Source: a virus (lineage: Duplodnaviria > Heunggongvirae > Uroviricota > Caudoviricetes). From it: DNA of 64,000 nucleotides. The DNA is taken from IMG/VR virus record IMGVR_UViG_2778261375_000003; one strand, written 5' to 3'. A program made the position numbers and the translations under genes. This document shows positions 7,860-60,650 of the stretch, one piece after another. The notes under the pieces were generated by a model. It saw nothing but the letters and a program-made list of their open reading frames with translations, was not told where the DNA came from and searched no databases. The number at the start of each line of letters is the position of its first letter. The first letter of the stretch is position 1.

Positions 7860-7890
7860 AAAAAAACCGACTAAGACGTCGGTTTTTTTG
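7860..7890. terminator. Bidirectional terminator downstream of racR
   Basis: aaaaaaccgac-taag-acgtcggttttttt hairpin flanked by A-run and T-run. Confidence 0.6.
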
Positions 7891-7915
7891 TTGTGGATGG
7901 GGTAGTGAGTGGTGG

Positions 7916-8377
7916 CTACTGGTTACGTTTCTTTAGTGCCAGCATGTTCTCGAAGGCTTCCTCGTAGAGCTTGTTTAGTCCACGTAGCTGGTTAAGGAGT
8001 TTGGCTTTTTCTGACGCAGGTAGAATCTCGAAGAGGTTAAGTAACTCAGCCTGTTCTTCATTGACCAGCCTCCATCCTTTGCCTGAAAAGCTATCATCAT
8101 AAGTATCTGATGATCTTACATAATTCATTAAGTCTTTAAGGTCTTCTCGAATGTCCTCTGGTTTTACCTTTAACAGAGCCGCAAATTTTAGCGCAGCGTC
8201 GGTATTTACCGGTATCTTGCCGTTCAGATACTGGCTAACGGTGCCTTGAGATTCGAATCCCAACAACTCAGCCGCCAGCTCTTGAGTCAGCTTCAGCTCT
8301 TTTTTTCTTGCATTCCATGCGGCTTTTAAATTCTTGCTCGCTTCTGGAGTTGCAATCACTTCGCGTGTTTTTTTCAT
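7916..8377 (-). CDS. racR: RacR-like HTH repressor
   Basis: 153 aa with XRE-type HTH (LTQELAAELLGFESQGTVSQYLNGK); divergent from a Cro-like gene; position equals RacR in Rac. Confidence 0.7.
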   Translation of the reverse strand: MKKTREVIATPEASKNLKAAWNARKKELKLTQELAAELLGFESQGTVSQYLNGKIPVNTDAALKFAALLKVKPEDIREDLKDLMNYVRSSDTYDDSFSGKGWRLVNEEQAELLNLFEILPASEKAKLLNQLRGLNKLYEEAFENMLALKKRNQ

Positions 8378-8425
8378 ACATAGAGTTTATTTGTTTTACC
8401 AATATTATCAAAGATAGTCTGACTG

Positions 8426-8454
8426 TTGATCTTTAAAATTAGTGGAGCTAATAT
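8426..8454 (+). promoter_or_regulatory. Candidate pR-like promoter for ydaS-ydaT
   Basis: TTGATC, 17-bp spacer, TAATAT, about 25 nt upstream of ydaS ATG, in the racR/ydaS divergent region. Confidence 0.4.
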
Positions 8455-8478
8455 TTGCTCGAGGCATAACGTAGAAGG

Positions 8479-8760
8479 TTGGCTATGAACTTAAGAGACT
8501 ATTTAAAAGAGAAACATATCACCCAGTTACAGTTTGGGAAGCTAACGGGTTTATCTCAGGTGCATGTAAGTCGAGTGCTGGGGGGCTATGAAAGATTCAG
8601 CCCTGAAAAAGCATTACGTGTTGCTGAAGTAACGAATTTCGAGGTTACACCTCATGAACTCCGGCCTGATATCTACCCGAATCCGACCGATGGTTTACCT
8701 GTTGGATGTAAGGCTAACACACAAAATGCACAGGAGTTGATTCATGAAAATCAGGCATGA
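8479..8760 (+). CDS. ydaS: YdaS-like Cro-type HTH protein
   Basis: 93 aa, HTH (LTGLSQVHVSRVL), divergent from repressor. Confidence 0.7.
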   Translation: MAMNLRDYLKEKHITQLQFGKLTGLSQVHVSRVLGGYERFSPEKALRVAEVTNFEVTPHELRPDIYPNPTDGLPVGCKANTQNAQELIHENQA

Positions 8761-9166
8761 GCACATCGAATCAGTGTTGTTAGCCCTAGCCGCTGAAAAA
8801 GGGCAGGCGTGGGTCGCTAACGCAATTACTGAAGAATATCTGCGCCAGGGGGGCGGCGAATTGCCCCTGGTACCAGGCAAGGACTGGAATAATCAGCAGA
8901 ACATCTATCACCGTTGGTTAAAAGGTGAAACGGAAGCGCAAAGGGAAAAAATTCAGAAACTGATCCCTGCAATTCTGGCAATCCTTCCGCGCGGGCTGCG
9001 TCACCGACTCTGCATCTTCGATACCCTGGAACGCCGTGCATTACTGGCGGCGCAGGAAGCGTTGAGTACGGCAATTGATGCGCATGATGATGCAGTCCAG
9101 GCCGTTTACCGGAAAGCACATTTCAGCGGTGGTGGGTCGCCCGGCGATTCTGTCGTAGTGCATTGA
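8744..9166 (+). CDS. ydaT: YdaT-like protein
   Basis: 140 aa, overlaps ydaS 3' end; length and position match Rac YdaT. Confidence 0.7.
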   Translation: MKIRHEHIESVLLALAAEKGQAWVANAITEEYLRQGGGELPLVPGKDWNNQQNIYHRWLKGETEAQREKIQKLIPAILAILPRGLRHRLCIFDTLERRALLAAQEALSTAIDAHDDAVQAVYRKAHFSGGGSPGDSVVVH

Positions 9167-9210
9167 TTGAAATTAATCGTGCCGGATTGTTTTGTTCGGT
9201 ATCAGTTAAA

Positions 9211-9630
9211 TGTAACGCTGCGAGCGTTACAAGGTGAAAACAAATGGCTTCAAACTGGATAAAGCTCGAGGTTATTACGCCGGATAAGCCGGAAATATTC
9301 AGGCTTGCTGAGATTCTGAATATTGATCCAGATGCCGCATTAGGGAAGGTTATTCGCTTCTGGGCATGGGCGGATCAACAAATGATAGACGGTAATGCAG
9401 ATTGTAACGCTCGCGGCGTTACAAAAAGTGCAATAGATCGCATCACTTTTATGGCTGGTTTTGCTGATGCGTTAATTCAGGTTGGATGGCTGGTCGAAAA
9501 TGACGGTGGGCTTTCTCTACCTAACTTTGAACGTCATAACGGGAAAAGCTCTAAAAAACGGGCGGTTACAAACGAGCGAGTTACAAAAATACGCGAACTG
9601 AAACGAAAAGGTAACGCTGGCAGCGTTACA
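9211..9630. repeat. Three copies of a GTAACGC(N)GCGTTAC palindrome plus one degenerate copy
   Basis: Perfect palindromes at 9211-9231, 9403-9423, 9611-9630 and a degenerate gttaca...gttaca at about 9565-9585; first overlaps the ydaU RBS region, others lie inside ydaU. Confidence 0.8.
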
Positions 9631-10032
9631 CAAATGGATCAAAAAGCGTTACCAGAGGAAGAGGAAGAGGAAGATATAAATACTGATCTCCCCCTAAATC
9701 CCCCTCGCCAAAAACGAGCGTCTAAAAAATTTGAGCCGGAGGCTATTGAGCTGCCCGATTGGTTGCCGGAAACACTCTGGCATGAGTGGGTCCGGTTCAG
9801 GCAGGCATTGCGAAAACCGATTCGAACGGAGCAGGGCGCTAACGGGGCGATACGGGAGCTGGAAAAATTCCGCCAGCAGGGTTTTACACCTGAGCAGGTG
9901 ATTCGACACAGCATCGCCAATGAATACCAGGGCCTGTTCGCGCCGAAAGGTGTTCGGCCTGAGACGTTGCTCCGACAGGTTAACACTGTCTCGTTGCCGG
10001 ACAGTGCGATCCCGCCAGGCTTCAGGGGGTAA
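9244..10032 (+). CDS. ydaU: YdaU-like replication initiation protein (lambda O analogue)
   Basis: 262 aa directly upstream of a DnaC-like gene; carries internal palindromic repeats. Confidence 0.65.
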   Translation: MASNWIKLEVITPDKPEIFRLAEILNIDPDAALGKVIRFWAWADQQMIDGNADCNARGVTKSAIDRITFMAGFADALIQVGWLVENDGGLSLPNFERHNGKSSKKRAVTNERVTKIRELKRKGNAGSVTQMDQKALPEEEEEEDINTDLPLNPPRQKRASKKFEPEAIELPDWLPETLWHEWVRFRQALRKPIRTEQGANGAIRELEKFRQQGFTPEQVIRHSIANEYQGLFAPKGVRPETLLRQVNTVSLPDSAIPPGFRG

Positions 10033-10038
10033 CGGACC

Positions 10039-10785
10039 ATGAAAAATATTGCGACAGGCGGCGTTCTGGAACGCATCCGCCGACTGACCCCGCCACATGT
10101 AACCGCCCCATTCAGAACGGTAGCGGAGTGGCGCGAGTGGCAACTTGCTGAAGGCCAGAAACGTTGTGAGGAGATCAACCGTCAGAATCGTCAGTTGCGG
10201 GTGGAAAAAATTCTGAATCGTTCAGGCATCCAGCCGTTGCACCGTAAATGCTCATTTGCGAATTACCAGGTGCAGAACGACGGCCAGCGATACGCGTTAA
10301 GCCAGGCGAAATCCATCGCCGATGAACTGATGACCGGGTGTACAAATTTTGCGTTCAGCGGAAAACCTGGTACCGGGAAGAATCACTTAGCGGCAGCTAT
10401 CGGGAATCGCCTGCTGAAAGACGGTCAGACAGTGATTGTGGTTACCGTGGCTGATGTTATGAGCGCCCTGCACGCCAGCTATGACGACGGGCAGTCAGGC
10501 GAAAAATTTTTGCGGGAGCTGTGCGAAGTGGATCTGCTGGTTCTTGATGAAATTGGCATTCAGCGCGAGACGAAAAACGAGCAGGTGGTGCTGCACCAGA
10601 TTGTTGATCGCCGGACAGCGTCGATGCGCAGCGTGGGGATGCTGACAAACCTGAACTATGAGGCCATGAAAACATTGCTCGGCGAGCGGATTATGGATCG
10701 CATGACCATGAACGGCGGGCGATGGGTGAATTTTAACTGGGAGAGCTGGCGTCCGAATGTCGTCCAGCCAGGAATTGCGAAGTGA
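10039..10785 (+). CDS. ydaV: YdaV-like DnaC/IstB-type helicase loader ATPase
   Basis: 248 aa, Walker [16 protein letters not shown], Walker B LLVLDEIG. Confidence 0.85.
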
Positions 10786-10807
10786 TTTTTACCGGGAGGA
10801 AATTTTA

Positions 10808-11569
10808 ATGGAGACTGTTTTTGACGCACTGAAAGCGATGGGAAAAGCCACGTCGGTAGAGCTGGCTGCGCGACTTGATATCAGTCGTGAAGAAGTACTG
10901 AACGAGCTGTGGGAACTGAAAAAGGCTGGCTTCGTTGATAAAAGCGTATACACCTGGCGTGTGGCTGATAACAACGTTCAGCAGGAACAGCCAGCGCCAG
11001 AAGAACAGCCGGAAGAAACCACCACGGCGACAGTAGCGAAAATCTCAGAGTGCGATTTAACCGCGACGATTGAACAACGCGGACCACAAACGGCGGATGA
11101 ACTGGCTACGCTGTTCGGTACAACATCCCGCAAAGTGGCTTCAACGCTGGCAATGGCAATCAGCAAAGGTCGTCTGATTCGCGTAAATCAGGGCGGTAAA
11201 TTTCGTTACTGCATACCGGGCGATAATTTACCAGCAGAGCCGAAAGCTGCATCGGTAGCGGAAACTGATGGTAAAGCCTTTCCTCAGCCTGCATGTGTTG
11301 CGTTACCAGTACAGGAGGCTGCAACACAGGAAGATATTAAAACAGAAACTGTGGCGGACATTGTGCAGTCGCTGCCATCGTTCACCGAAACGCGAGCGGA
11401 TGACCTGATTTTACCATCGCTGCATATGGCAAACCGCGAACTGCGTCGGGCGAAAAGTCATGTCCAGAAGTGGGCGCGAGTCTGCGCCGCGCTGCGGGAG
11501 CTGAACAAGCACCGGGATATTGTTCGACAGATTACTGATTCTTCCCGACGTGTTGTATCGGAAAAGTGA
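10808..11569 (+). CDS. Hypothetical phage protein (YdaW position)
   Basis: Start set at ATG 10808 behind gggagg RBS; acidic/proline-rich linker; no recognised motif. Confidence 0.5.
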
Positions 11570-11584
11570 TTGCCGGAGGCACTT

Positions 11585-12007
11585 ATGGCAAAAGTATTTA
11601 CACAAGAAGAGCGGGAAAAAATTAAAGGGCAGGTTGTTGAGCTAGTACGCCGGAGTGGGCGCGAGACGTTACGGCAACTGGAAGCCAAGACAGGTGCGAC
11701 AAGATATCTGATGAGCGTTCTCGCCAGAGAGCTTGTTGCCAGTGGCGATGTATACAACTCTGGTTACGGGTTATTTCCGTCTGAACAGGCCCGTAAGGAC
11801 TGGCAAAACGCCCGCAAAAAACTATCCAGGGCAAAGGTGAAAAAAACGGTTGTGGTTGATCCTGACCTTATCTGGTCATTACCAGACGGAGAAATACGCC
11901 GCTACGACAGGCGTCTGAACATAATCTGTCGCGAGTGCCGGAAGAGCGAAGCTATGCAGCGTGTACTGGCTTTCTATCAGGGTAATTTTCAGGAGGCGGT
12001 ACTGTGA
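11585..12007 (+). CDS. Hypothetical phage protein
   Basis: ATG 11585 behind ggagg RBS; 140 aa. Confidence 0.5.
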   Translation: MAKVFTQEEREKIKGQVVELVRRSGRETLRQLEAKTGATRYLMSVLARELVASGDVYNSGYGLFPSEQARKDWQNARKKLSRAKVKKTVVVDPDLIWSLPDGEIRRYDRRLNIICRECRKSEAMQRVLAFYQGNFQEAVL

Positions 12008-12064
12008 GTGAAATTAGCTATCAGGCTTCAATTGCCGCTGGCATTCGCATCAAAGGAGAGGAGC

Positions 12065-12421
12065 ATGGAAATAAAACCAGAAGATGAGTTAAGTAATATT
12101 GTTTTATTTCCGGTAAAAGAGGATGACCCACGTAATCAGGTTAATTTTCTTTATGAGCCATCGGAAAGACCATATTGTCATCACGCCTCTGTCCGGGTTG
12201 ACGAAAAAGAGCGTCAGGTCCGCTGTAAAATCTGCGGTGCAGTTGTGGAGCCATTTGACTGGATGCTCTCTGTGGCGAAAAGAGAAACCAGACTGGCAGA
12301 TGATGTAAGGCTATTGCGTCAGGAGGAACAGGAAAGGCGAAAAAATATAGAAAAGCTAATTCAGATTGAGCGTAACGCGAAAGCGCGGATAAGCAGGGTG
12401 ACAAAATCAAGAACTGAATAA
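12065..12421 (+). CDS. Hypothetical protein with C/H zinc-ribbon-like motif
   Basis: ATG 12065 behind aaaggagaggagc RBS; CHH...CKICG motif. Confidence 0.5.
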   Translation: MEIKPEDELSNIVLFPVKEDDPRNQVNFLYEPSERPYCHHASVRVDEKERQVRCKICGAVVEPFDWMLSVAKRETRLADDVRLLRQEEQERRKNIEKLIQIERNAKARISRVTKSRTE

Positions 12422-12514
12422 TTTAAATTTAGCACTGTTAAAAATTTAATCCTTAACCGGAGGGATTTCTGCACCCTCAGAACATCAGGAGTCCGCCCGA
12501 AAGGGCGGTAAGAA

Positions 12515-12733
12515 ATGACTACATTATTCAGAAAAGAATATCCGCGAAGAAGTAGAACGACAGAATTTTTGTTTCTCATTCTGTTTATCGTGTTGATGAC
12601 ACCGATATCCCCGCTAATTTTTGTCTGGGCAATCGGGAAAATAATTGAGCCAGTTATTGAATTGTATAACGACGTGGTATGGGCGTCGTTCAACACACTG
12701 CACAATAAAATTAATCCGTATAAGGAAAGCTGA
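12515..12733 (+). CDS. Small hydrophobic membrane protein
   Basis: 72 aa with one long hydrophobic helix (FLFLILFIVLMTPISPLIFVWAIG). Confidence 0.4.
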   Translation: MTTLFRKEYPRRSRTTEFLFLILFIVLMTPISPLIFVWAIGKIIEPVIELYNDVVWASFNTLHNKINPYKES

Positions 12734-12734
12734 T

Positions 12735-13166
12735 ATGACCACTATTACCACTATTACCAGAGAAAACGCGGAGATTAAATCATTCATCACTGGTTTCCTG
12801 AGCGACCCGGCGCACGATAACCAATCTTCAGACAGCCTGCTTGCCAATGTGTTTCGTATCGCGCTGGCTTCGCTGGAAGCAGAACCAGTTGCATGGACTG
12901 ATGATGAGGAACTGCGTGATGTCAAGCAGTATGGTCTCGGTGAGATATTTCAGTGCCCGCCAGATAAATACGCAGACTCGCGTCGTGTAATTCCGCTGTA
13001 TCGTGTGCCGCCAGCTTCCATGGTGCAGGCACAGGGCATAGAGATTGCAATAAACGAACTGGTGGCTCTGTCCCCACGCTTGGATAAACAGGCGGTGGAA
13101 ACTCTTTCTATGGCTGTGGAACATTTACGCAAACTGGTTAAGAAGCAGTTGCAGACTAAGGACTAA
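12735..13166 (+). CDS. Hypothetical phage protein, paralogue A
   Basis: ATG 12735 behind aaggaaag RBS; begins MTTIT and contains RIALASLEAEPVA, both shared with next gene. Confidence 0.55.
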   Translation: MTTITTITRENAEIKSFITGFLSDPAHDNQSSDSLLANVFRIALASLEAEPVAWTDDEELRDVKQYGLGEIFQCPPDKYADSRRVIPLYRVPPASMVQAQGIEIAINELVALSPRLDKQAVETLSMAVEHLRKLVKKQLQTKD

Positions 13167-13169
13167 CCC

Positions 13170-13865
13170 ATGACCACTATTACCAAAGAACGTATTGAAT
13201 TGTTCATTAAAAATCCGCTTGAAAACGGGCTTGCTCGTAGCGAACAAATGGAAGTGGCACGGATCGCTTTGGCATCGCTGGAAGCAGAGCCGGTGGCATA
13301 TCAGTATCGCCAGTGGGATGCAGAATATGATGAATGGGGAGAATGGGAAGATTGCGGGGAATGTGCTTTCGAAAGATTCGTTGAGGAAGAGAAATGCCAG
13401 GGGGCAGGTGTTCAGACCCGTAAGCTTTACACCGCCCCTCCAGTGCCGGTAGTGCCAGAGGAAATCAGCATGGCTTCAAAGTTGCCTCTCATGAGTGACC
13501 AGTTGATGTTAGTAGGTTATGTGAAGGGGTGGAACGCCTGCCGCGCAGCCATGCTTCAGTCCGGAAACTTTCGGGAAATCTCGGAAACGTCAACCAACTC
13601 TCCGATAACTCTGACTCCTTTGCCTGGTGGTTTCACCATTGAGGATGCGAAGGAGTTACATGAAGACCTGGTACGCAGCCACATAAGCCAGGCTTTAAGT
13701 GGCGAGAAGATGAAAAAGAAAGATCGTGATGCTGATTTGCTCTGGATTCATGGCGTTATAGTACAGGCAGCGTGGTTTGTGAAAGCCTCACTGGATGCGT
13801 TGCCTGAACCGCTGCGGGAGGAGAAGGGAGGAAGTCCAACTGAAGAAAGTGAAGCCGGACTGTAA
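13170..13865 (+). CDS. Hypothetical phage protein, paralogue B
   Basis: 231 aa; shares MTTIT N-terminus and ARIALASLEAEPVA block with previous gene. Confidence 0.55.
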   Translation: MTTITKERIELFIKNPLENGLARSEQMEVARIALASLEAEPVAYQYRQWDAEYDEWGEWEDCGECAFERFVEEEKCQGAGVQTRKLYTAPPVPVVPEEISMASKLPLMSDQLMLVGYVKGWNACRAAMLQSGNFREISETSTNSPITLTPLPGGFTIEDAKELHEDLVRSHISQALSGEKMKKKDRDADLLWIHGVIVQAAWFVKASLDALPEPLREEKGGSPTEESEAGL

Positions 13866-13931
13866 ATTACCGAGTAAGGCGATGGACTACCTGAAGCGAA
13901 ACGGGCTGACAAGCGTGGAGGATATTTTACG

Positions 13932-14015
13932 ATGACCTGGCCTGAGGCATTCACCACGGTAGGAATTGCAATGGCGGTGGCGCTGGTGGTGTATTCGATT
14001 TGCCGCTGGGGATAA
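13932..14015 (+). CDS. Possible 27-aa hydrophobic peptide
   Basis: Hand-found ORF MTWPEAFTTVGIAMAVALVVYSICRWG; below ORF-track cutoff; speculative. Confidence 0.25.
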   Translation: MTWPEAFTTVGIAMAVALVVYSICRWG

Positions 14016-14203
14016 AAACGGTTTGCGGGAAAAGGAGAGTTAAGTAGAATTGCAGCGGGTGCTTGAGGCTATCTGCCTCGGGCATGAACACCAACGGCAG
14101 ATAGATAAAAGCCCCACCCGACTATAAATCGAAGTGAGGCCCCTATATGCTCGTCACATATAGATTGCCTCTTACGGACCGAAAGGTCAAGGAGAAGCAG
14201 GCT

Positions 14204-14359
14204 ATGAAGCAGCAAAAGGCGATGTTAGTCGCCCTGATCGTCATCTGTTTAACCGTCATAGTGACGGCACTGGTAACGAGGAAAGACCTCTGCGAGGTAC
14301 GAATCCGAACCGGCCAGACGGAGGTCGCTGTCTTCGTAGACTACGAACCTGAGGAGTAA
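14204..14359 (+). CDS. hok: Hok/Gef-family type I toxin
   Basis: 51 aa MKQQKAMLVALIVICLTVIVTALVTRKDLCEVRIRTGQTEVAVFVDYEPEE, near-identical to recalled HokD/RelF; in-frame upstream ATG at 14147 could act as a mok-like leader. Confidence 0.9.
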   Translation: MKQQKAMLVALIVICLTVIVTALVTRKDLCEVRIRTGQTEVAVFVDYEPEE

Positions 14360-14427
14360 GAGACCCGGCGGGGGAGAAATCCCTCGCCACCTCTGATGTG
14401 TCAGGCATCCTCAACGCACCCGCACTT

Positions 14428-14450
14428 ACCCCGCTTCGGCGGGTTTTTTG
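14428..14450 (+). terminator. Rho-independent terminator of hok transcript
   Basis: ccccgcttcggcggg hairpin followed by tttttt. Confidence 0.7.
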
Positions 14451-14637
14451 TTGTTTATTTTCGGTGAGCATGATGCATCTGGTTGTACTGATGTGGCTGG
14501 CTGATTCTGTTATTCAGGTGGCTTATTGCTGTTGATTGGTATGTCTTCACGGCTAGAATCGAGGCTCTTAAGTAGCGCGCAGGGAGAAGAGGGATGGACC
14601 CCGAAGGGGAAGAGCTATTTATCTGGAAGGATTCTGA

Positions 14638-14813
14638 AGATGAAAATCGAAGAATTGCGTGAAATTTTTAGTGAAAATGGCCTCTATGCTGTGCGCGTTG
14701 AGAATGGGAAAGTTGTCTACACAACGTTAATCCCTGATGATCATGTAATTTTATCTATCGAGGCATTCATTGAATACCTTGAAAGGCTCGGTTTCAAGGT
14801 GGTTCGCGAATGA
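14638..14813 (+). CDS. Hypothetical small protein
   Basis: 58-aa ORF from MKIEELREIF; start chosen at internal ATG. Confidence 0.4.
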
Positions 14814-14872
14814 GTTATAATTCGTAAGCCAGCCTGAACAACTGGCAACCTACAGCGCCATTGGAGGCAGCA

Positions 14873-15472
14873 ATGGCGCATATACAACTGGTCAAACAAA
14901 CCTCTTCCGGATTACTTCTCCCGGCGACGCCGGAGAGTTGTGATTTTCTGCATCAAATCAAAATAGGTGAGTGGATACACGCAGACTTTAAGCGTGTGCG
15001 TAACTACGCGTTCCACAAGCGTTTTTTCAAACTCCTGCAACTGGGATTCGATTACTGGACTCCGAACGGTGGGGCGATCACGCCTCGCGAACGAGAACTG
15101 GTGTCCGGTTTCGTTGAGTATCTGTGCGAATCAGTTGGTCGGGAACACACTCCAGCCCTGAGCGAAGCCGCAGAGCAATATCTGAATGCCGTTGCGACAC
15201 GCAGAACCCGGGATACGGCATTGCTAAAGTCGTTTGACGCTTTCCGCGAGTGGGTAACCATTCAGGCCGGATTTTACACCGAGCATATTTATCCTGATGG
15301 TAGTCGTGGGCGCAGGGCAAAATCTATCGCATTTGCGAATATGGACGAAACCGAGTTTCAGCAGGTTTATAAATCTGTACTGAATGTGCTGTGGAACTGG
15401 ATCCTGTTCCGTAAATTTTCCTCTCCGGAGGAAGTCGAAAATGTGGCCGCACAGTTACTGGAGTTTGCGTAA
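14873..15472 (+). CDS. Nin-region protein, DUF1367-like
   Basis: ATG 14873 behind ggagg RBS; recalled as the family paired with DUF1364 upstream of Q in lambdoid prophages. Confidence 0.5.
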   Translation: MAHIQLVKQTSSGLLLPATPESCDFLHQIKIGEWIHADFKRVRNYAFHKRFFKLLQLGFDYWTPNGGAITPRERELVSGFVEYLCESVGREHTPALSEAAEQYLNAVATRRTRDTALLKSFDAFREWVTIQAGFYTEHIYPDGSRGRRAKSIAFANMDETEFQQVYKSVLNVLWNWILFRKFSSPEEVENVAAQLLEFA

Positions 15473-15762
15473 TGGTGGATTTACGTAAAGCGGCGCGGGG
15501 GCAGATGTGCACCGTCAGAATTCCTGGCTACTGCAATCACAATCCCGAAACTTCTGTGCTGGCGCATTACAGGCTGGCGGGGACGTGCGGAACAGCGACA
15601 AAACCACACGATATGCAGGCAGCGATTGCCTGTAGCTCATGCCACGATCTAATCGACGGGCGGGTAAAAACCAGCGATTACACCAAAGAAGAATTACGCC
15701 TGATGCATGCAGAAGGTGTTTTTCGCACACAAGAAATCTGGAGAAAGGAAGGTTATTTATGA
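15472..15762 (+). CDS. DUF1364 protein, YbcO-like
   Basis: MVDLRKAARGQMCTVRIPGYCNHNPETSVLAHYRL...CSSCHD resembles recalled YbcO; ATGG start overlaps previous stop. Confidence 0.7.
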   Translation: MVDLRKAARGQMCTVRIPGYCNHNPETSVLAHYRLAGTCGTATKPHDMQAAIACSSCHDLIDGRVKTSDYTKEELRLMHAEGVFRTQEIWRKEGYL

Positions 15763-52886: not shown

Positions 52887-53426
52887 CTACCACCAACTGC
52901 TAGCTTTCTTCTCTCTAGCTTTTCCTTCGCTTTGCAGTAAATCTTTACTTCCTGTAGAAATATTTCTATTTGCATCAGCCTCAGACTGAATTACATCTGT
53001 CTTAGCTGCTCTCTCCTTCAACTCCTGCTCTATAAAATCGTTTTCTCGCTGGACACGAGCCGCTTTTGCTTGCAGTTCGAGCTTCATGCTTTCGAGTTGC
53101 AGCTTGCGAAGCTCATCCTCATAAGCTTGATCTCGCTTCTTGTCATTTGCTAGCTCGGCTTCTCGTTTCGCTCTACGTTCATTTTCTGCAGCAACACGCT
53201 GTTTTTCGCGTGCAGCAGCGGCAGATGCTGCTTTTTCTCTTCTAATACGTTCAGCTTGTGCTTGTTGGCGAATAAGTTCTTTTCTGGCATCCTCAGCTTG
53301 CTGCTCTTTAGCTCGCCCTTCATTTTCCGCTTGAGCAATAGCAGCAATTTGACTTTGCAACGAGTTAGCCAAGGCAGTGCCTACACTAAACGTAGAAAAG
53401 ATTAGAAATAAAATAATTTTATTCAT
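52887..53426 (-). CDS. Secreted coiled-coil protein (Lys/Glu/Ala/Arg-rich)
   Basis: Signal peptide MNKIILFLIFSTFSVGTALA then long charged helical region; AT-rich codon usage. Confidence 0.55.
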   Translation of the reverse strand: MNKIILFLIFSTFSVGTALANSLQSQIAAIAQAENEGRAKEQQAEDARKELIRQQAQAERIRREKAASAAAAREKQRVAAENERRAKREAELANDKKRDQAYEDELRKLQLESMKLELQAKAARVQRENDFIEQELKERAAKTDVIQSEADANRNISTGSKDLLQSEGKAREKKASSWW

Positions 53427-53429
53427 AAA

Positions 53430-53951
53430 TTATTTCTTTTCTGGACAAGTAGCATTTGGCTGAATTCGAGTTTCATTATCTTTAGTTGAAATAAGCACAG
53501 CAAGCCCCGTTGTAAACTGGCATGCTTTACCAACTTGAGTTGAAGTGAACACCTTAGTTCCTTCTTTATAAGTCAGTGAAACACCTTCAACAATTGTTTT
53601 ATCACTAACCAAAGAACCAGCCGCTGCACCAAGAGCCGCACCACCAGTACCGCCAGCTACAGCACCCAGTGTCGATGTGCCTTTAACATTATAACCGGCA
53701 ACGCCCCCAGCAACAGCTCCCAGTACCGCACCAAATGTCTGTGCCGCTTCTTTATTAGCTTTATTATCAACTTTCACTTTAGCTGGAAGCACAGAGATAA
53801 TATTGACTGTCTTTGTTTCCTGCTTCGAATTCAATTGAGCGGTATCATAAACATCGGCAGCATAATCAGCACCGCTAGATTGACACCCAGAAAGAAGAAT
53901 TGCAGATACAACAAGAGCGCATAAAGTATACTTTTTAGACATAAGAATCAT
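53430..53951 (-). CDS. Lipoprotein with glycine-zipper domain (SlyB-like)
   Basis: Lipobox LLSGC; GAVLGAVAGGVAGYNV...GAVAGGTGGAALGAAAGS; start may be 53951 or 53942. Confidence 0.6.
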   Translation of the reverse strand: MILMSKKYTLCALVVSAILLSGCQSSGADYAADVYDTAQLNSKQETKTVNIISVLPAKVKVDNKANKEAAQTFGAVLGAVAGGVAGYNVKGTSTLGAVAGGTGGAALGAAAGSLVSDKTIVEGVSLTYKEGTKVFTSTQVGKACQFTTGLAVLISTKDNETRIQPNATCPEKK

Positions 53952-54563
53952 CCCAGAAAAACAAAAACCGGCGAGAAGTTACCACGAGAACGGAAAGTAA
54001 ACAAGAATACTCCCATTGACTTATATCAATTAATCAACTTTTTATAAGCTATCCCTAACTTATTGTGTATAGCTGAAAAGTCAGAGACAAGTTCACCATC
54101 TGCATTATTTCTTAAGTTAATAGTTTATTGCTAACTTAATTTATGTATCGACTATTGATATCCATCTTAAAGTTACAATATCCCTCTGCATTATTTTTCA
54201 TCACAAATAATATATCTATTGCACTACACTCACCTGCTCTAATAAATTTGTATTTTTAAGTCACAAATGCTATCTTTTCGCATCATATTGACCTTTTAAT
54301 CGTTCAGGCTTATAGTTCCGCCGTCGTAGCAAATTCTGCGACCGGGTTTAGCAGCCTGAATGATTGTGCGGACAGCCGCAGATATCCGATATTGCGGTAT
54401 TTTTGTGTCCGTAAAACCGTGTTACGCCCAAATTATGGTGGGGCGTGATGGGGAGGCTTCGGCCTGCTGGTTTCACAATCGCCAGTCTGCTAACCCCGTC
54501 ACGTCCTGCCACCTGTTTAGCAGCGGGTAGCAGGTTGTTAAACCTGATTGTGAGGCCGTAACT

Positions 54564-54785
54564 ATGGTTAATGCCAATCCTTGCGCACGCCAAGAATTCA
54601 TCTGGCGTTTCTATTCCTGTAAAAAACACCACTATCACTTCGTCATCGCAGCAACAGAAGACGAAGCACGCTCTCAATTGCCTGATGGCCCCTGCATTTT
54701 TACTGCCCGTTTTTCAACTAACTCGCGCAATTCACTTAGTTACTGGAACCTCCCCTTCTCTGCCGACGTTCAGGGGGATTTATGA
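54564..54785 (+). CDS. Icd-like small protein (putative cell division inhibitor family)
   Basis: 73 aa; EFIWRFYS...HFVIAATEDEARSQL...TARF fits remembered Icd-like pattern; gagg RBS; ATGA-coupled to antirepressor. Confidence 0.4.
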   Translation: MVNANPCARQEFIWRFYSCKKHHYHFVIAATEDEARSQLPDGPCIFTARFSTNSRNSLSYWNLPFSADVQGDL

Positions 54786-55825
54786 AAAAACCTCTCGTCA
54801 CCCGTAATGAAATAGCCGAAGCGATCGCCCTGCATACAACCTGTATGCCGACACGGGAGATCCCCGGCGCAATTGCCAACTATTTCATGATAACCAGACG
54901 TTTTTATACCCGAACAGATAAGGCTGTGATCAACAAGCTACTGATAGCCGAGATCAGGGATTATTTGATTGAACAAGGACGTCTACGTTACGCAACAGTG
55001 GCAGCAGAAATGAGAAAGGAGGCGCGCAGAATGACCGGTAATAATTTGAATGTTGAAAAACCAGCACCTGTTGCTTCAGCTACGCCATCACCAGCTGTGA
55101 ATGTTATCTCCAACACTGGAGACACAATCGACAGCCAGACACTGTTAAAGATGGTCAATGAAGCTCGTAAGTTATGTGGGGAACCAGAGGTTCGGAACAA
55201 CAAATTCATCGAAAAAATACTCGACGAATTAGAAGGTGAGGACGGTTACACAAAAAGTGCAACCGTGCCGCCAGGTGGCGGTACGCCTATGGTTGTCATA
55301 ACCATGACCTACAAACAAGCCCTGCGAGTCGCCGCACGCGAATCAAAAGCCGTCCGCCGTTCGCTGATCGACAAACTGGAAGAATTGCAGCAGGCAAACT
55401 CCCCTGCCCCATCGATCCCCCAAACATTACCAGAAGCTCTACGCCTGGCTGCCGAGTTGGCAGAACAGAAAATGCAGCTGGAACAACAGCTGGTGGCCGC
55501 CGCTCCTAAAGTCGATTTTGCCGACCGGGTATCAGTGGCTAATGGAATCCTGATCGGGAACTTTGCAAAGGTCGTTGGACTTAAGCAAAACGCCCTTTTC
55601 TCATGGTTGCGCCAGAACGGCATTCTCATGGCTTTTGGTGCGCGCAAAAACGTACCGCGCCAACAGTACATCAACGCCGGGTATTTCACGGTGAAAGAAG
55701 TGGTGCTGGATGATGAAAATGGCTACCAGATACGGCTGACGCCCCAATTAACGGGTAAAGGCCAGCAGTGGTTAACTCGCAAGCTACTTGATGCTGGTTT
55801 GTTAAAACCAGTAGCAATAGGTTAA
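54782..55825 (+). CDS. Phage antirepressor with KilA-C/ANT C-terminal domain
   Basis: C-terminal 130 aa (LPEALRLAAELAEQK...GYFTVKEVV...TGKGQQWL) match the ANT/KilA-C pattern and are paralogous to next gene. Confidence 0.7.
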   Translation: MKKPLVTRNEIAEAIALHTTCMPTREIPGAIANYFMITRRFYTRTDKAVINKLLIAEIRDYLIEQGRLRYATVAAEMRKEARRMTGNNLNVEKPAPVASATPSPAVNVISNTGDTIDSQTLLKMVNEARKLCGEPEVRNNKFIEKILDELEGEDGYTKSATVPPGGGTPMVVITMTYKQALRVAARESKAVRRSLIDKLEELQQANSPAPSIPQTLPEALRLAAELAEQKMQLEQQLVAAAPKVDFADRVSVANGILIGNFAKVVGLKQNALFSWLRQNGILMAFGARKNVPRQQYINAGYFTVKEVVLDDENGYQIRLTPQLTGKGQQWLTRKLLDAGLLKPVAIG

Positions 55826-55989: not shown

Positions 55990-56790
55990 ATGCAACAAAC
56001 ATTCAATGCGGATATGAATATATCAAACCTTCATCAAAATGTCGATCCTTCAACCACTCTGCCTGTTATTTGTGGTGTTGAAATTACGACCGACCGCGCT
56101 GGCCGTTACAACCTTAATGCTCTACACAGAGCGAGCGGACTCGGTGCCCATAAAGCGCCAGCTCAATGGCTAAGAACGCTGTCAGCCAAACAGCTCATCG
56201 AAGAGCTTGAAAAAGAAACTATGCAGAATTGCATAGTTTCGTTCGAAGGCCGTGGCGGCGGCACTTTTGCCCATGAATTGCTCGCTGTGGAGTACGCAGG
56301 CTGGATTTCTCCCGCATTTCGGCTGAAGGTAAACCAGACATTTATCGACTATCGAGCCGGAAGATTACAACCAGCTATTCCGCAGAGTCTCCCTGAAGCT
56401 CTCCGTTTGGCTGCCGACCTGGCAGAGCAAAAGCAACGGCTGGAGCAAAAAATGCTTATGGATGCACCTAAAGTCGAATTCGCCGAACGCGTTGCTACCG
56501 CTAGCGGGGTTCTAATCGGCAACTATGCCAAAGTGCTCGGCCTGGGCCAAAACTATCTCTTCACCTGGTTGCGTGATAACGGAATTCTGATCGCAACCGG
56601 TGAACGCAGGAACGTCCCCAAACAAGAATACATATCTCGTGGGTATTTCACCCTTAAAGAAACCGTGATCGATACAAGCAATGGAAGCAGGATTTCTTTC
56701 ACGACTCGTATAACCGGCAAAGGTCAGCAGTGGCTGATGAAGCGATTGCTTGATGCTGGTGTGCTGGTACCTGTCGCGGCAACGCGCTAA
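55990..56790 (+). CDS. Phage antirepressor, KilA-N plus KilA-C domains
   Basis: N-terminal KilA-N-like region (...NLNALHRASG...AQWLR...FEGRGGGTFAHELLAVEYAGWISP...); C-terminal ANT domain paralogous to previous gene; ggagaaaaa RBS. Confidence 0.75.
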   Translation: MQQTFNADMNISNLHQNVDPSTTLPVICGVEITTDRAGRYNLNALHRASGLGAHKAPAQWLRTLSAKQLIEELEKETMQNCIVSFEGRGGGTFAHELLAVEYAGWISPAFRLKVNQTFIDYRAGRLQPAIPQSLPEALRLAADLAEQKQRLEQKMLMDAPKVEFAERVATASGVLIGNYAKVLGLGQNYLFTWLRDNGILIATGERRNVPKQEYISRGYFTLKETVIDTSNGSRISFTTRITGKGQQWLMKRLLDAGVLVPVAATR

Positions 56791-56819
56791 CAGACGTAGT
56801 AAGAACCACCAGCATTGTA

Positions 56820-57665
56820 ATGCTGGCTAAAGTCACTTTCCTGAGCTGTATAACGATGAGCGATTTTACTTTTTCTGGCTATGAATTGGCCTGCTTTGTA
56901 ACACACTCCGGTCTATCCCGTAGCGCCGGGCATATCCTGTCGCAATGTGCAAATCTCGCGGCAACAACCAGTGAATACTTCATTCACAAGCCTCACCGCC
57001 TGATCGCGGCAGAAACTGGTTATAGCCAATCAACCGTCGTTCGTGCATTCCGTGAAGCTGTAAACAAAGGAATTCTGTCTGTAGAGATTGTTATCGGCGA
57101 TCACCGTGAACGTCGCGCTAACCTGTACCGGTTTACACCATCCTTTTTGGCCTTCGCACAACAAGCCAAAAATGCGCTGATAGAAAGCAAATTAAAGATC
57201 TCTTCAGCGGCAACCAAGGTTAAAGCTGTTCTCGCTAAGACATTGGCTTTATTTAATTTTTTATCCACACCCCCATGTCAAAATGATACCCCCTCCCCCT
57301 GTCAGGATGACGTGGCAATAAAGAATAAGAAGTCACAAGTTAAAAAAACAAAAAGATCAGTTTCCGGCGGTGCCGGAACGACCAGCCTCAAAAAATTGAC
57401 TTCATGGATCGCTAAGGCAAAAGCAAAGGCTGACAATCTGCGGTTATCCAAAAAACGCACTCAAAAACATGAGTTCAAGCAGAAAGTAGAGGCGGCTGCG
57501 CGGAAATATGCTTACCTGAAGAACAAGCGTTCGCCTGATATTGGCGGGATATCAAACTTCGATAACCTACCGCATTGCATGACGGTAAACGAAGCTCTTA
57601 ATGCGGTTTTAGCCAAAAATAAAGATAACGAACAATGGGGTATACCGGCAGGATTCAGAGGGTAA
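56820..57665 (+). CDS. Winged-HTH DNA-binding protein (possible replication/regulatory)
   Basis: HTH-like GYSQSTVVRAFREAVNKGIL; basic low-complexity middle; C-terminus ...WGIPAGFRG echoes YdaU C-terminus; start may be 56856. Confidence 0.45.
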   Translation: MLAKVTFLSCITMSDFTFSGYELACFVTHSGLSRSAGHILSQCANLAATTSEYFIHKPHRLIAAETGYSQSTVVRAFREAVNKGILSVEIVIGDHRERRANLYRFTPSFLAFAQQAKNALIESKLKISSAATKVKAVLAKTLALFNFLSTPPCQNDTPSPCQDDVAIKNKKSQVKKTKRSVSGGAGTTSLKKLTSWIAKAKAKADNLRLSKKRTQKHEFKQKVEAAARKYAYLKNKRSPDIGGISNFDNLPHCMTVNEALNAVLAKNKDNEQWGIPAGFRG

Positions 57666-57833
57666 TGAATTGCTCTAATTATAACCATGCATACTTTCAA
57701 CACCTCTAGTTTGCCATGAGGCAAACTCATAGGTGTCCTGGTAAGAGGACACTGTTGCCAAAACTGGACGCCCCATTATTGCAATTAATAAACAACTAAC
57801 GGACAATTCTACCTAACAATAAGTGGAGTTAAC

Positions 57834-58538
57834 ATGTTGAACCGAAGAACATTTAATGTATTCTGCGATGAATCCTGTCACCTACTAAATGATCATAATA
57901 AAGTCATGGTATTGGGTGCGCTTTGGTGTCCCGGCACTATCACAAAAAAAATTGCTAGAGACATCAAGGAATTAAAATTAAAACACAATCTAAAACCTGA
58001 TTTCGAAATCAAGTGGACTAAAGTATCTGCGTCCAAAGTTGAATTTTACTTAGATGTCGTAGATTACTTCTTCAGCAACCCTGCATTGCGCTTTAGAGGT
58101 GTTGTTGTTCCTGATAAAGAGCAACTGGACCATGCTCGATTCCATCAAGATCATAATACTTTCTATTATAAGATGTTTTTTTATGTCTTAAAAAACATAA
58201 TAGAAAGTAACAACACATACAATATCTACCTAGATATAAAAGATACTTTAGGTATTGAAAAAATTGAGAAATTAAGAGGGGTTCTTCACAATGATCGCTA
58301 TGATTACAATCATGAGTCGATAAACAGAATTCAACATATACGATCTCATGAAGTGCAGCAATTGCAGCTAACGGATCTTTTCATTGGCGCGTTAGGCTAC
58401 GTTCATCGAGGAATGAATAGCAACGCGGGAAAAATCCAAGTCATAAACAGAATAAAATCACATACAAACAGGGAGTTACTAAAAAGTACTCTTCCAACAG
58501 AAAGTAAATTTAATATTTTCGTGTGGGAGGCTCGCTGA
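57834..58538 (+). CDS. DUF3800-family protein, gene 1 of AT-rich two-gene cassette
   Basis: N-terminal FCDES motif typical of DUF3800; gtggag RBS; AT-rich codon usage; stop overlaps next start (ATGA). Confidence 0.6.
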   Translation: MLNRRTFNVFCDESCHLLNDHNKVMVLGALWCPGTITKKIARDIKELKLKHNLKPDFEIKWTKVSASKVEFYLDVVDYFFSNPALRFRGVVVPDKEQLDHARFHQDHNTFYYKMFFYVLKNIIESNNTYNIYLDIKDTLGIEKIEKLRGVLHNDRYDYNHESINRIQHIRSHEVQQLQLTDLFIGALGYVHRGMNSNAGKIQVINRIKSHTNRELLKSTLPTESKFNIFVWEAR

Positions 58539-59002
58539 TGCTTCAAATGCCAGATTTATTGTACTTCAATGGAAGTTGGCAAGAGTATATAGACGATGTA
58601 TATGATGTTGTTAGAGAAGATATTTTAATATCTAATATAACGTTTAAGGGTCTCCCTGTTCGATTACGTTATTCACCGGAATATAATGGGAAAGAATTCG
58701 GATTTTGGCATTTAGTATCAGAGGGAAAAATAGAAGAAGAACGTATACCCGATCTTGAACGGTGCAAGCGAATTCGCTGGATCGCGCACATGATAAGGAA
58801 TTATAACCATTGCGATATATCATGTTGGTCTGAAAGACGAGGACCAACTGAAGAGTGGGTAATCTGGAATGAGTGTGAAAACTACGTTGTTGTGCTATCC
58901 GCACGTAGAGACTATTGGCTTCTCAAAACAGCCTATGTTGTAACCTATGACAGTAAAATCAGAACACTCAAACAAAGCAGAAAAAGAGCACTTGGGACAT
59001 AA
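58538..59002 (+). CDS. Hypothetical protein with H/C cluster, gene 2 of cassette
   Basis: 154 aa from MLQMPDLLYF; gggagg RBS inside upstream gene; HMIRNYNHCDISCW cluster; no family recognised. Confidence 0.5.
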   Translation: MLQMPDLLYFNGSWQEYIDDVYDVVREDILISNITFKGLPVRLRYSPEYNGKEFGFWHLVSEGKIEEERIPDLERCKRIRWIAHMIRNYNHCDISCWSERRGPTEEWVIWNECENYVVVLSARRDYWLLKTAYVVTYDSKIRTLKQSRKRALGT

Positions 59003-59167
59003 AAAGCTGAACCCGACACATATTGCTATGTATCGGGTTCGATCGCTCTTTCTACACATGGTAGATGAGTAATGCAAATCTAACCGATCTACTTTAGCTT
59101 TTCAATAGCTAGCTATAACTTTCCGCACATATTCTTCTGATAATTCCGGGAGAGCGGTTGGGTTTTT

Positions 59168-59464
59168 TCATGCTTTTCTGCGCAGAGAAGCACACTTATT
59201 CAGCAATAATAAGTGCAATTCTTTGTTATCACTAAGTATTTCTACACACCAATATCGTAACGTGTTCACTTCAAGTGTAGCCAGCACCTTATGTCGAAAA
59301 GCCCCCTCCCCTACACATAACGATGGCTGACATTCTGCTAAGGCACATAACCATGTATTGGCATCATAGAGAATCCAATAATGCTCCTCGGAAATAGTTT
59401 TGCATCCAATTATTTCGAATCTTCGTTCTATCGTTTCAGGAGAGTATGAAAAATCAATTTCCAT
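59168..59464 (-). CDS. Hypothetical small protein (AT-rich island)
   Basis: 98-aa ORF convergent with DUF3800 cassette; several Cys. Confidence 0.4.
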   Translation of the reverse strand: MEIDFSYSPETIERRFEIIGCKTISEEHYWILYDANTWLCALAECQPSLCVGEGAFRHKVLATLEVNTLRYWCVEILSDNKELHLLLLNKCASLRRKA

Positions 59465-59504
59465 AATATGCTCAAAATTTCGCTATATTGACATGATTTA
59501 AGCA

Positions 59505-59530
59505 CAAAAAAGCTCCCGAAGGAGCTTTAA
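59505..59530 (-). terminator. Bidirectional terminator at end of minus-strand structural block
   Basis: aaaaaagctcccgaaggagcttt; on minus strand the hairpin is followed by tttttt; lies 20 nt after the stop at 59548. Confidence 0.7.
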
Positions 59531-59547
59531 AATACAAGGGATGACTC

Positions 59548-60057
59548 TTAATCCCACTCAATCCAGTTGTAGACGATACGAAGTGACGGGCGCACAGCGG
59601 CAGTCACATCTTCGGTACTAAAGTCGATTGCATCACTGTAGATTTTGCAGTCCAACATTTCAATTGTTGTAGCAGCTTTTGTCACAGCGTTAACCCCGGA
59701 AGATTTGGATTCAGGGGTCGCAGCCATCGTGATATCAACATAGTCCTTCGCCGCAATGCGATCTTTAATGAACTGAAGAATATCGCCTTCGATAGTCTCC
59801 ACGCACTGGACCTGGATTTCCCCAGAGTTTCGAATTGGACCGTGCTGGTTGAACTTCACACCATTCGGACCATAGTCCTCCACATCCTCGCGGGTCATTT
59901 CAGGAATTTGCGACGTGCGAACCAGTACGCTGATATCTTCATGGCCTGCAAAAGTGAGCTGGAATTCAGAAGATACCAGTCGTTCGCCTTTGGCCGCGTT
60001 GGCAGTATAGCGGCCCTTAATAAATTTACGGTTTCCCTTAGTGTTATTGTGCCCCAT
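59548..60057 (-). CDS. Phage structural protein (possible tail tube)
   Basis: 169 aa at the 3' end of a minus-strand structural operon. Confidence 0.35.
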   Translation of the reverse strand: MGHNNTKGNRKFIKGRYTANAAKGERLVSSEFQLTFAGHEDISVLVRTSQIPEMTREDVEDYGPNGVKFNQHGPIRNSGEIQVQCVETIEGDILQFIKDRIAAKDYVDITMAATPESKSSGVNAVTKAATTIEMLDCKIYSDAIDFSTEDVTAAVRPSLRIVYNWIEWD

Positions 60058-60068
60058 ATAAAATCCTT

Positions 60069-60650
60069 TTACTGGAACGCCCGAACAATATCGGAGCTGT
60101 TATATATCGAAGAACCGGTCAACTGGAGGTTGACGGTGTTTTTCAGGAAATGCCCATTGCTGTCCCTGGGCGCATCGAGATCGAAACTTATGTCCTGGAT
60201 AGCGACATCAATGATGTTGATCCGGCGACCAATGTTTAGCGTCACACGCTCCGGGATTCGACCACCAATGCTGGCATCTTTAAGTTCCGGGCTAATCATC
60301 GCTGACAATGCGGCGATAGCTCCTGAAACCTCAGTGAATGGGTCAAACAAAGCGATGAAAGTTACTGGCAGCGTGAAAGTCGGCGGTGTTCCCCCCTCCC
60401 AAACCATTAAGCTGTTCCAACGGGCCACCGACGTTGTTTCAGTACCAACCTGCGCAAAACCACTGAAAGCACCAGCAACAGACCCCATGGACATACCGGT
60501 AAACGGCGCTTCCCAATTCTGGGCCATGTTCATTGCTGCCCCCTGGCTGATATATCCGGTAACCTGGTACTGAGAGTTCGTTAAAGTAACTTTCAGAAAT
60601 GGCGATACACCGTCAGCCTGGCTGTAAACCCCATAAGGTATAGGTGCCAT
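60069..60650 (-). CDS. Phage structural hypothetical protein
   Basis: 193 aa, Gly/Ser/Ala-rich. Confidence 0.35.
   Translation of the reverse strand: MAPIPYGVYSQADGVSPFLKVTLTNSQYQVTGYISQGAAMNMAQNWEAPFTGMSMGSVAGAFSGFAQVGTETTSVARWNSLMVWEGGTPPTFTLPVTFIALFDPFTEVSGAIAALSAMISPELKDASIGGRIPERVTLNIGRRINIIDVAIQDISFDLDAPRDSNGHFLKNTVNLQLTGSSIYNSSDIVRAFQ

Follow-up and report, generated by a model that had tools for sequence, protein, structure and literature searches.

A 64,000-nucleotide stretch of viral DNA (IMG/VR virus record IMGVR_UViG_2778261375_000003; the whole stretch is called the window in the following) contains an AT-rich cassette of two genes. The region from 57600 to 59600 is a 100% match to Escherichia phage P1 (AF234172, AF234173, NC_005856), and the cassette is the annotated P1 gene pair rlfA-rlfB; the convergent gene next to it is pmgF. 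The analysis of homologs indicated that RlfA and RlfB are an obligate two-gene unit, which in many bacteria is located in type I restriction-modification (R-M) operons. In P1 the cassette occupies a replaceable slot, with repL on one side and the tail/baseplate operon on the other, and it was acquired horizontally as cargo. We consider it fairly probable that RlfA-RlfB is a portable two-protein conflict module, serving in defense or abortive infection, which acts on nucleic acids; our confidence in the mechanistic details is lower than that in the class.

The rlfA-rlfB pair is already known from the reference P1 sequence, as named genes, through a Pfam domain, as part of a published variable region and as a published defense candidate. 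The initial annotation of the window had called an uncharacterized defense or addiction module plausible; since the defense idea has been published at the family level (Payne et al. 2024), this interpretation was right but not new. With the family already catalogued as a PADLOC candidate, the value of the present analysis is a sharpened and testable hypothesis and not a discovery. It adds the statistics on the obligate pair, the size of the R-M linkage, a fold lead and a conserved set of His and Arg residues for RlfB, an asymmetry in the decay of RlfB, the exact boundaries of the cassette (one of them in an operator of the C1 repressor) and a case against the labels 'replication' and 'oxidoreductase'. 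P1 is among the most used phages in genetics, yet the name of rlfA and rlfB is based on their position. A role in defense or abortive infection, if true, would be the first function for DUF3800, a domain which is also found in retrons, in Cas12a2/a3 loci and beside eleven orphan RNA motifs.

Obligate pairing and genomic contexts of RlfA and RlfB

We analyzed 80 loci from species-representative genomes, found by alignment with RlfA, and a set of viral contigs found by alignment with RlfB. A homolog of RlfB is located directly downstream of the RlfA homolog, on the same strand, in 79 of the 80 species-level loci, which come from many phyla. The same order, with RlfA upstream of RlfB, occurs in 28 of 28 viral contigs. 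The genes overlap in 40 of the 79 pairs, by 4 nt in 24 cases and by 1 nt in 16, and almost all of the junctions are within 20 nt. The initial annotation had described the P1 genes as ATGA-coupled. The coupling is present; the junction in P1 is TGATG with an overlap of 1 nt, while ATGA is the commonest junction among the homologs. The separate ribosome binding sites it had listed are also there, with GGAG for rlfA and GGGAGG for rlfB, each 7 nt before the ATG.

RlfB is the faster-evolving partner, with a mean pairwise identity of 41.5% versus 56.5% for RlfA, and in 98% of the comparisons the RlfA proteins are more alike than the RlfB proteins. The decay of the pair is also one-sided. Five independent lineages have kept RlfA intact but have an RlfB that is broken or lost; two of these lineages have stops at or beside the FWH motif of RlfB. 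The rlfB gene of Methylomonas has a stop at the W of the invariant FWH, an allele shared by the genome of an isolate and two further datasets; in a metagenome-assembled genome (MAG) of Phycisphaerae the stop is two residues before the Methylomonas position. Two E. coli islands carry an rlfB frameshift at residue 99, two P1-like contigs have an RlfB truncated past about residue 73, and Sulfurimonas has an RlfA without any RlfB. The sole opposite case is a deletion remnant (locus L124), in which RlfA residues 1-110 are fused to RlfB. This asymmetry is the pattern expected if RlfB were a harmful effector and RlfA harmless alone. Fusions of RlfA and RlfB were considered as evidence for an interaction and rejected; the long members of the RlfB family carry N-termini that are unrelated to RlfA, and L124 is an in-frame deletion remnant.

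The survey of genomic neighborhoods, which had been proposed together with the idea of a defense or addiction module, led to type I R-M systems and to integrases. In a locus-by-locus search, co-oriented hsdR, hsdM or hsdS genes were found within the flanks of 38 of the 80 loci; since at least 3 kb on both sides is available in 44 loci only, this and the following counts of R-M linkage are lower bounds. The pair has hsd genes on both sides in 16 of the 80 loci, 15 of which have the order hsdM/hsdS-[rlfAB]-hsdR; in locus L066, hsdR and hsdS are upstream and hsdM is downstream of rlfAB. Also common is the order hsdR-hsdM-hsdS-[rlfA-rlfB], in which the stop of hsdS abuts the start of rlfA. Type I R-M subunits also dominate the 142 immediate neighbors of the 79 pairs (13-14 HsdS, 16 ResIII, 12 SWI2_SNF2 and 10 HSDR_N); further neighbors are other methylases and RhuM, DUF1016, PD-(D/E)XK, TIR and PLD proteins.

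Single loci illustrate these contexts. The order in Methylomonas is hsdS-rlfA-rlfB-hsdR, and in Algoriphagus it is hsdMS-RT-rlfA-rlfB-hsdR-pAgo, where RT is a reverse transcriptase and pAgo an Argonaute. In an E. coli guaA island the pair is beside an integrase, and the island also holds a NACHT protein. In Enterobacter ludwigii the pair is at the integrase end of a lambdoid prophage. The P1 copy, located between repL and bplB, is without an R-M neighbor. The R-M operons, the integrases of islands and prophages and the match to the PADLOC candidate PDC-M04 (see below) give contextual support to the view that a defense or addiction module is plausible.

The Algoriphagus island (positions 4183-15617 in loci L009 and L010, from Algoriphagus pacificus and a metagenome contig) is compact and lies on one strand. 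It comprises an hsdM-S fusion, a 502-aa RVT_1 protein, RlfA, RlfB, hsdR, a 325-aa protein and an Argonaute with a Piwi domain. With a reverse transcriptase gene immediately before the DUF3800 gene, the island is reminiscent of retron type VII.

A known RNA element in or around the cassette was rejected on the basis of an Rfam scan; at E ≤ 10 the region 56500-60200 gave chance-level matches only and no DUF3800 motif. Among 27 RlfAB loci the sole hit was a DUF3800-V RNA (RF02964) in a MAG of Candidatus Anammoxibacter (locus L039, 11616-11711, minus strand), about 430 nt downstream of the RlfAB pair. The score of 40.7 bits is marginal relative to the gathering threshold of 37.4. With this hit, one or more of the orphan DUF3800 RNA motifs of Weinberg can be linked to the RlfAB subtype. 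A single marginal hit in 27 loci indicates that a non-coding RNA partner is not a general feature.

Sequence motifs and predicted structures of the two proteins

RlfA matches the Pfam family DUF3800 (PF12686) with 54.2 bits (cut-off 21, E 3.5e-14) over profile positions 1-148 of 149. The FCDES motif, from which the initial annotation had recognized the domain, corresponds to residues 10-14; its statement that DUF3800 has no established function agrees with the literature that mentions the domain. An alignment of 24 sequences from several phyla contains the invariant residues D12, E13, S14, C15 and H16, D134, K136 and D137, and Q178 and D181. DUF3800 proteins are defined by an N-terminal D-E and a C-terminal QxxD motif (PMC7736814), and RlfA has both, as D12-E13 and Q178-x-x-D181. 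Homologs with 50-65% identity to RlfA occur in Bacteroidota, Chloroflexota, Planctomycetota, Verrucomicrobiota, Nitrospirota and many Proteobacteria.

The predicted structure of RlfA has an RNase H fold with the type 2 topology of RNase HII, H2A and HIII. Candidates for active-site carboxylates are D12, E13, D134/D137 and D181, all of them invariant in the alignment. The invariant motifs agree with the published view of DUF3800 as an RNase H fold, which was expressed for the effector of retron type VII (PMC7736814); published work also describes the domain as an accessory of Cas12a2 and Cas12a3. The RNase H models of Pfam do not match RlfA, and a profile search against PDB sequences gave nothing relevant; this means that RlfA is RNase H-like by its fold and not a member of the RNase HII family. 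No match of RlfA to helix-turn-helix, ribbon-helix-helix or AbrB domains was obtained.

RlfB carries HMIRNYNHCDISCW in a protein of 154 aa, as the initial annotation had read it. A profile search collected an RlfB family of 1784 clusters at 50% identity, nearly all of 150-180 aa. Of 147 representatives, 100% have H58, 99% R75 and 98% F56, while R78, W81, R69, W97 and W57 reach 93-96%. The structure model of RlfB has a pLDDT of 92 and weakly resembles RNase toxins of the RelE/colicin D type (BECR), with modest scores. RlfB is labeled 'replication protein' in PHROG and RefSeq and 'oxidoreductase' in RefSeq; these labels are unsupported, because the protein has no Pfam or NCBIfam model. NCBIfam has no model for RlfA, RlfB or PmgF.

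The profile search of both proteins, which had been suggested as a check, therefore gave DUF3800 for RlfA and no Pfam or NCBIfam family for RlfB, which is recognized in PADLOC by the model PDC-M04B. The A and B models of PDC-M04 match RlfA with 1e-95 and RlfB with 1.3e-51, and with the two genes adjacent, the P1 pair is a member of PDC-M04. A named defense system was rejected, as PADLOC gives only PDC-M04 and a weak match to PDC-S51.

The exchangeable cargo slot of P1 and its control

The P1 cassette is preceded directly by repL; the antirepressor genes, which the initial annotation had placed there, are further upstream together with kilA. The features of the locus are as follows.

54782-55825: ant1/ant2, upstream of kilA (P1 annotation)
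55990-56790: kilA, between ant1/ant2 and repL (P1 annotation)
56820-57665: repL, lytic replication initiator with oriL inside, directly upstream of the cassette (P1 annotation)
57669-57685, plus strand: operator Orlf (former Op55) of the C1 repressor, just past the repL stop (AF234172 annotation)
57680-59505, no strand: exchangeable low-GC cargo segment with rlfA, rlfB, pmgF and control regions (blastn breakpoints)
57686-57833, plus strand: rlfA leader with two hairpins, PrlfA and a hairpin overlapping the Shine-Dalgarno sequence (annotation and RNA fold)
57779-57807: PrlfA, annotated weak promoter within the rlfA leader (P1 annotation, predicted)
57834-58538, plus strand: rlfA, 234-aa DUF3800 protein with a predicted RNase H2-like fold
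58538-59002, plus strand: rlfB, 154-aa partner, translationally coupled via TGATG, without Pfam or NCBIfam family
59009-59040: palindrome with a 14-bp stem and a 4-nt loop, between the convergent rlfB and pmgF
59168-59464, minus strand: pmgF, 98 aa, PHROG 7349 (function unassigned there)
59509-59528, minus strand: bplB terminator hairpin, right edge of the exchangeable segment

The genes on the minus strand past rlfB follow in the order pmgF, bplB, pmgG, gp21 and the sheath gene 22 (P1 annotation).

The fall in GC and codon usage relative to the flanks, which had been noticed in the initial annotation, was confirmed by computation. Based on 1170-nt windows across the 64 kb, the GC content of rlfA-rlfB is 0.364 compared to a mean of 0.483 (sd 0.039, z -3.05). 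This is the lowest value in the window, and only 0.3% of the 1170-nt windows are as low. GC at the third codon position is 0.32-0.35 in the cassette genes versus 0.44-0.55 in kilA, repL, bplB, pmgG and gp22. The convergent small gene, pmgF, lies inside the low-GC segment as described; the GC content of 57666-59547 is 0.374.

The comparison with other P1-like elements by blastn defines the borders of this segment. MH422554, ON470615, RCS47 and SJ46 are 97-99% identical to the window up to 57679 (SJ46: 57598) and again from 59506, and they are unrelated to it between these breakpoints. Phage P7 has 97.4% identity to a region of about 2 kb around the cassette. The segment that is really exchanged is hence 57680-59505, and includes pmgF, instead of 57700-59100 as had been estimated. 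Its left breakpoint at 57679/57680 falls inside the C1 operator Op55, and all four alternative alleles retain the first 11 nucleotides of the operator, ATTGCTCTAAT, before they diverge. Because the edge is inside Op55 and ATTGCTCTAAT is kept, any cargo in the slot may be subject to control by C1 or face a C1 roadblock. On the right, the break coincides with the bplB terminator hairpin, and homology to the other alleles is back at 59506.

The full segment is present in 98 of 680 P1-like plasmid records that match the query, and it is missing from about 85% of the P1-like plasmids that retain both flanks or the bplB flank. The P1-type allele occurs in 121 of 5426 complete E. coli genomes and is nearly always plasmid-borne. 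Knock-down of rlfA, rlfB or pmgF by CRISPR interference (CRISPRi) did not reduce the plating of P1 (PMC10695390), and rlfA-rlfB-pmgF is already listed as the low-GC 'variable region 5' (PMC9603915). The deviant GC, the sharp breakpoints, the frequent absence and the dispensability show that the cassette is horizontally acquired accessory cargo, as the initial annotation had suggested.

The commonest alternative cargo among the sampled records is a type I toxin of the Hok/Gef family, which fills the slot in most of those that lack the P1 segment. The slot of RCS47 contains an IS605-family transposase and a 198-aa protein, and that of SJ46 an outer-membrane protein of the Ail/Lom type and a 210-aa protein. 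The Ail/Lom gene of SJ46, J46_0018 (locus L017, 1821-2336, minus strand), is annotated as RepL; with matches to PF13505 (2e-24) and PF06316 (1e-22) the product is an outer-membrane beta-barrel, and the RepL label is a mis-annotation of a gene of the lysogenic-conversion type.

Among 125 loci pmgF is confined to the P1-like ones. As a third component of the module it was rejected for this restriction; it travels with rlfAB in P1-like elements and is outside the rlfAB module elsewhere. PmgF has no match in Pfam or PADLOC. In its N-terminal ~65 aa PmgF shares 45% identity with the N-termini of longer proteins, whose genes occupy the corresponding place beside bplB in RCS47 (locus L016, 2572-3168, minus strand, 198 aa), SJ46 (L017, 698-1330, plus strand, 210 aa) and vB_EcoM-673R5 (L015, 2043-2558, minus strand, 171 aa). 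The C-termini of these proteins differ and have no Pfam or PADLOC match. Judged from these alignments PmgF may be a short form in what looks like a polymorphic family with a common N-terminal module. A 19-nt stretch in pmgF (59206-59224) is 84% complementary to the Op55 region 57664-57682. On the other strand it agrees with the consensus of C1 operators in about 11 of 17 positions and is not an annotated operator; the resemblance is probably due to chance.

Further low-GC patches in the window are located at about 1201-2700 and 53100-54500, with 1170-nt windows down to 0.39; 400-nt windows fall to 0.34 near 53800-54400. The patch at 53100-54500 falls in the sim / c4 immunity region, which directly precedes icd-ant. 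The sim / c4 region is another published variable region of P1-like elements (PMC9603915).

We also examined how the pair is expressed in P1. A terminator scan found no terminator on the plus strand between repL and rlfA, and PrlfA scores below the threshold in a consensus promoter scan. During P1vir infection the transcripts of rlfA and rlfB go up early, together with repL. Because of the missing terminator, the C1 operator at the junction and the rise of the transcripts with repL, expression upon induction or infection is probably due mainly to transcripts of the C1-controlled kilA-repL operon that read through into the pair. PrlfA probably has a weak activity at most in lysogens; a search for P1 lysogen transcriptomes found none that was usable.

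The leader of rlfA (57666-57833) folds with -42.4 kcal/mol (z -3.49 relative to shuffled sequences), and the predicted hairpins may serve in translational control. Two of them, at about 57708-57729 and 57732-57773, are strong, and a third at about 57805-57830 pairs with the Shine-Dalgarno region. The related copy in the Enterobacter prophage has a spacer of just 59 nt, and the P1-type leader is not conserved there. At the other end of the cassette, the imperfect palindrome past the rlfB stop is present as reported (59009-59040, stem 93% complementary). With its T-run on the minus strand it is best read as a terminator of pmgF, and it is probably a weak one for rlfB.

Function of the pair and relation to known systems

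In a conflict module of the proposed kind RlfA would be a metal-dependent enzyme related in its predicted fold to RNase H2, and would recognize or cut an RNA-DNA hybrid or a junction of an invading replicon. RlfB, the small and faster-evolving partner, would be an RNase with a modeled likeness to RelE and colicin D, which acts on tRNA or mRNA and arrests growth. In many bacteria the pair would be co-transcribed with a type I R-M system, at the genomic site of PrrC, and form a second line behind restriction. In P1 the module would be supplied by read-through from kilA-repL on induction or infection, and in lysogens at most by a weak PrlfA. In a more specific scenario, which we regard as rather unlikely, RlfAB would be a new and widespread immune module of two proteins, in which an RNase H2-like sensor of RNA-DNA hybrids or junctions from an invading replicon unleashes a divergent RNase of the BECR type. 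In bacteria the pair would guard type I restriction in the manner of PrrC; P1 would have acquired it and put it under the control of C1, so that rivals are excluded when the phage turns lytic. If this were true, the same principle of sensing by DUF3800 would operate in retron type VII and in the accessories of Cas12a2/a3.

Several points weigh against a conflict module with these properties. Profile searches in Pfam, NCBIfam and PDB sequences gave no relative of RlfB. A Foldseek search with the RlfB model gave a best E of 0.06, with 0.16 for HigB1 and 0.47 for colicin D, none of which is significant; 'BECR/RelE-like RNase' is a lead for RlfB and not a result. An adaptor or inhibitor without catalytic activity is an equally good reading of this protein. 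The putative active-site carboxylates of RlfA come from conservation and not from coordinates, and the argument from the decay pattern includes five cases only, some of them MAGs. The slot in P1 is a general accessory site, because the alternative cargo includes an outer-membrane protein and a transposase and none of it matches PADLOC; a dedicated defense hotspot was rejected for the same reason. The position of the C1 operator and the lytic induction are a poor fit to a prophage defense that is expressed in the lysogen, and this timing, the main oddity for such a defense, keeps alive the views that the pair is an addiction module or benefits the phage in lytic growth. Furthermore, PDC-M04 is a prediction only in its source paper, and no functional test of the rlfA-rlfB pair was found in the literature searched.

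The best surviving alternative is a toxin-antitoxin or addiction module, which stabilizes the low-copy P1 plasmid and in which RlfB is a RelE-like toxin neutralized by RlfA. We judge it unlikely. It overlaps with a conflict module, since many addiction modules also abort phage infection. The overlap and translational coupling of the genes, the resemblance of the RlfB model to type II toxins and the survival of intact RlfA next to broken RlfB in five lineages are all consistent with it; the commonest alternative in the same slot is a Hok/Gef toxin, and P1 already uses phd-doc for this purpose. However, RlfA with its 234 aa, more than 50% identity across phyla and intact motifs of a catalytic type is not a small labile DNA-binding antitoxin. 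For the chromosomal copies in type I R-M operons there is no plasmid that could be stabilized, and an autoregulatory operator is not evident.

A second alternative is that the pair benefits the phage during lytic growth, either in host takeover, in exclusion of co-infecting phages or in counter-defense, for example by an RNase H-like destruction of retron msDNA. The C1 operator in front of the genes, their location directly downstream of the early kilA-repL genes with no terminator between, the early induction in P1vir infection and the ties of DUF3800 proteins to retrons and non-coding RNAs would suit such a role. We nevertheless hold it to be improbable: most copies of the pair are on chromosomes and integrated in R-M operons of the host, which is the other side of the conflict, the pair is not needed for plaque formation on a laboratory host (PMC10695390), and most P1-like elements are without it.

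The P1 annotation describes rlfA and rlfB as 'possibly associated with lytic replication'. A function of RlfA as an RNase H on R-loops or primers at oriL in RepL replication, with RlfB as accessory, would agree with the adjacent repL/oriL, the co-induction, the predicted RNase H2-like fold and the label 'replication protein' for RlfB in RefSeq and PHROG. It is very improbable: the name is derived from position only, the label is without Pfam or NCBIfam support, knock-down leaves plating unchanged (PMC10695390) and about 85% of P1-like plasmids retain repL without rlfAB. Outside P1, repL adjoins the pair in none of four neighborhoods with Pfam annotation and is not among the 25 commonest Pfam families of the immediate neighbors, in surveys that were not a dedicated search for repL. 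The idea is contradicted because the pair is dispensable, is absent from most elements that keep repL and has homologs in non-replicative contexts; the name 'replication-linked function', carried since 2004, is position-based, unsupported and probably wrong.

The closest relative of the proposed conflict module is PDC-M04, which is the same family as the P1 pair. It was selected by guilt-by-embedding as one of 145 predicted candidates for future study (Payne, Hughes, Fineran, Jackson 2024, bioRxiv 10.1101/2024.01.29.577857), and P1 rlfAB is not mentioned in the main text of the same preprint. The present survey reproduced the basis of this prediction, the embedding in type I R-M systems. Our literature search found no paper on PDC-M04.

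Retron type VII and the TPR-DUF3800 proteins associated with Cas12a2/a3 have in common with RlfA the RNase H-like DUF3800 domain with its D-E and (Q)xxD motifs. In these immune systems, which work with RNA-DNA hybrids or guide RNAs, the domain has the role of an accessory or of an effector. Unlike these systems, rlfA in P1 has no adjoining reverse transcriptase, non-coding RNA, TPR protein or CRISPR locus, and its partner is the RlfB protein.

The BECR toxins of the RelE/ParE and colicin D/E5 type differ from RlfB, which is about 60 residues longer and has no significant relation to them in Foldseek or profile searches. The upstream partner of RlfB is also different; in place of the small, labile, DNA-binding antitoxin of type II systems it is a large, enzyme-like protein of 234 aa with an RNase H-like fold. 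The link between RNase HI and RnlA is established. The anti-T4 systems RnlA-RnlB and LsoA-LsoB offer a similar concept, an endoribonuclease toxin modulated by an RNase H protein. There is no homology, and RnlA appeared in Foldseek only as a fragment of 37 residues; the likeness to RlfAB is an analogy only.

PrrC and RloC are anticodon nucleases in type I R-M operons, and PrrC is a single protein that combines an ABC-ATPase and a nuclease. The RlfAB pair of an RNase H2-like protein and a small partner has no sequence or domain homology to them in the PADLOC scan. PrrC is named as a system that is almost exclusively embedded in type I R-M (10.1101/2024.01.29.577857). A PrrC-like embedding is also found for the RlfAB family; an R-M neighbor is missing from roughly half of the pairs, that of P1 among them. 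The genomic logic is the same, since rlfAB either separates hsdS from hsdR or is joined to the operon's end; by analogy the putative RNase effector of RlfAB would likewise serve as a back-up to restriction.

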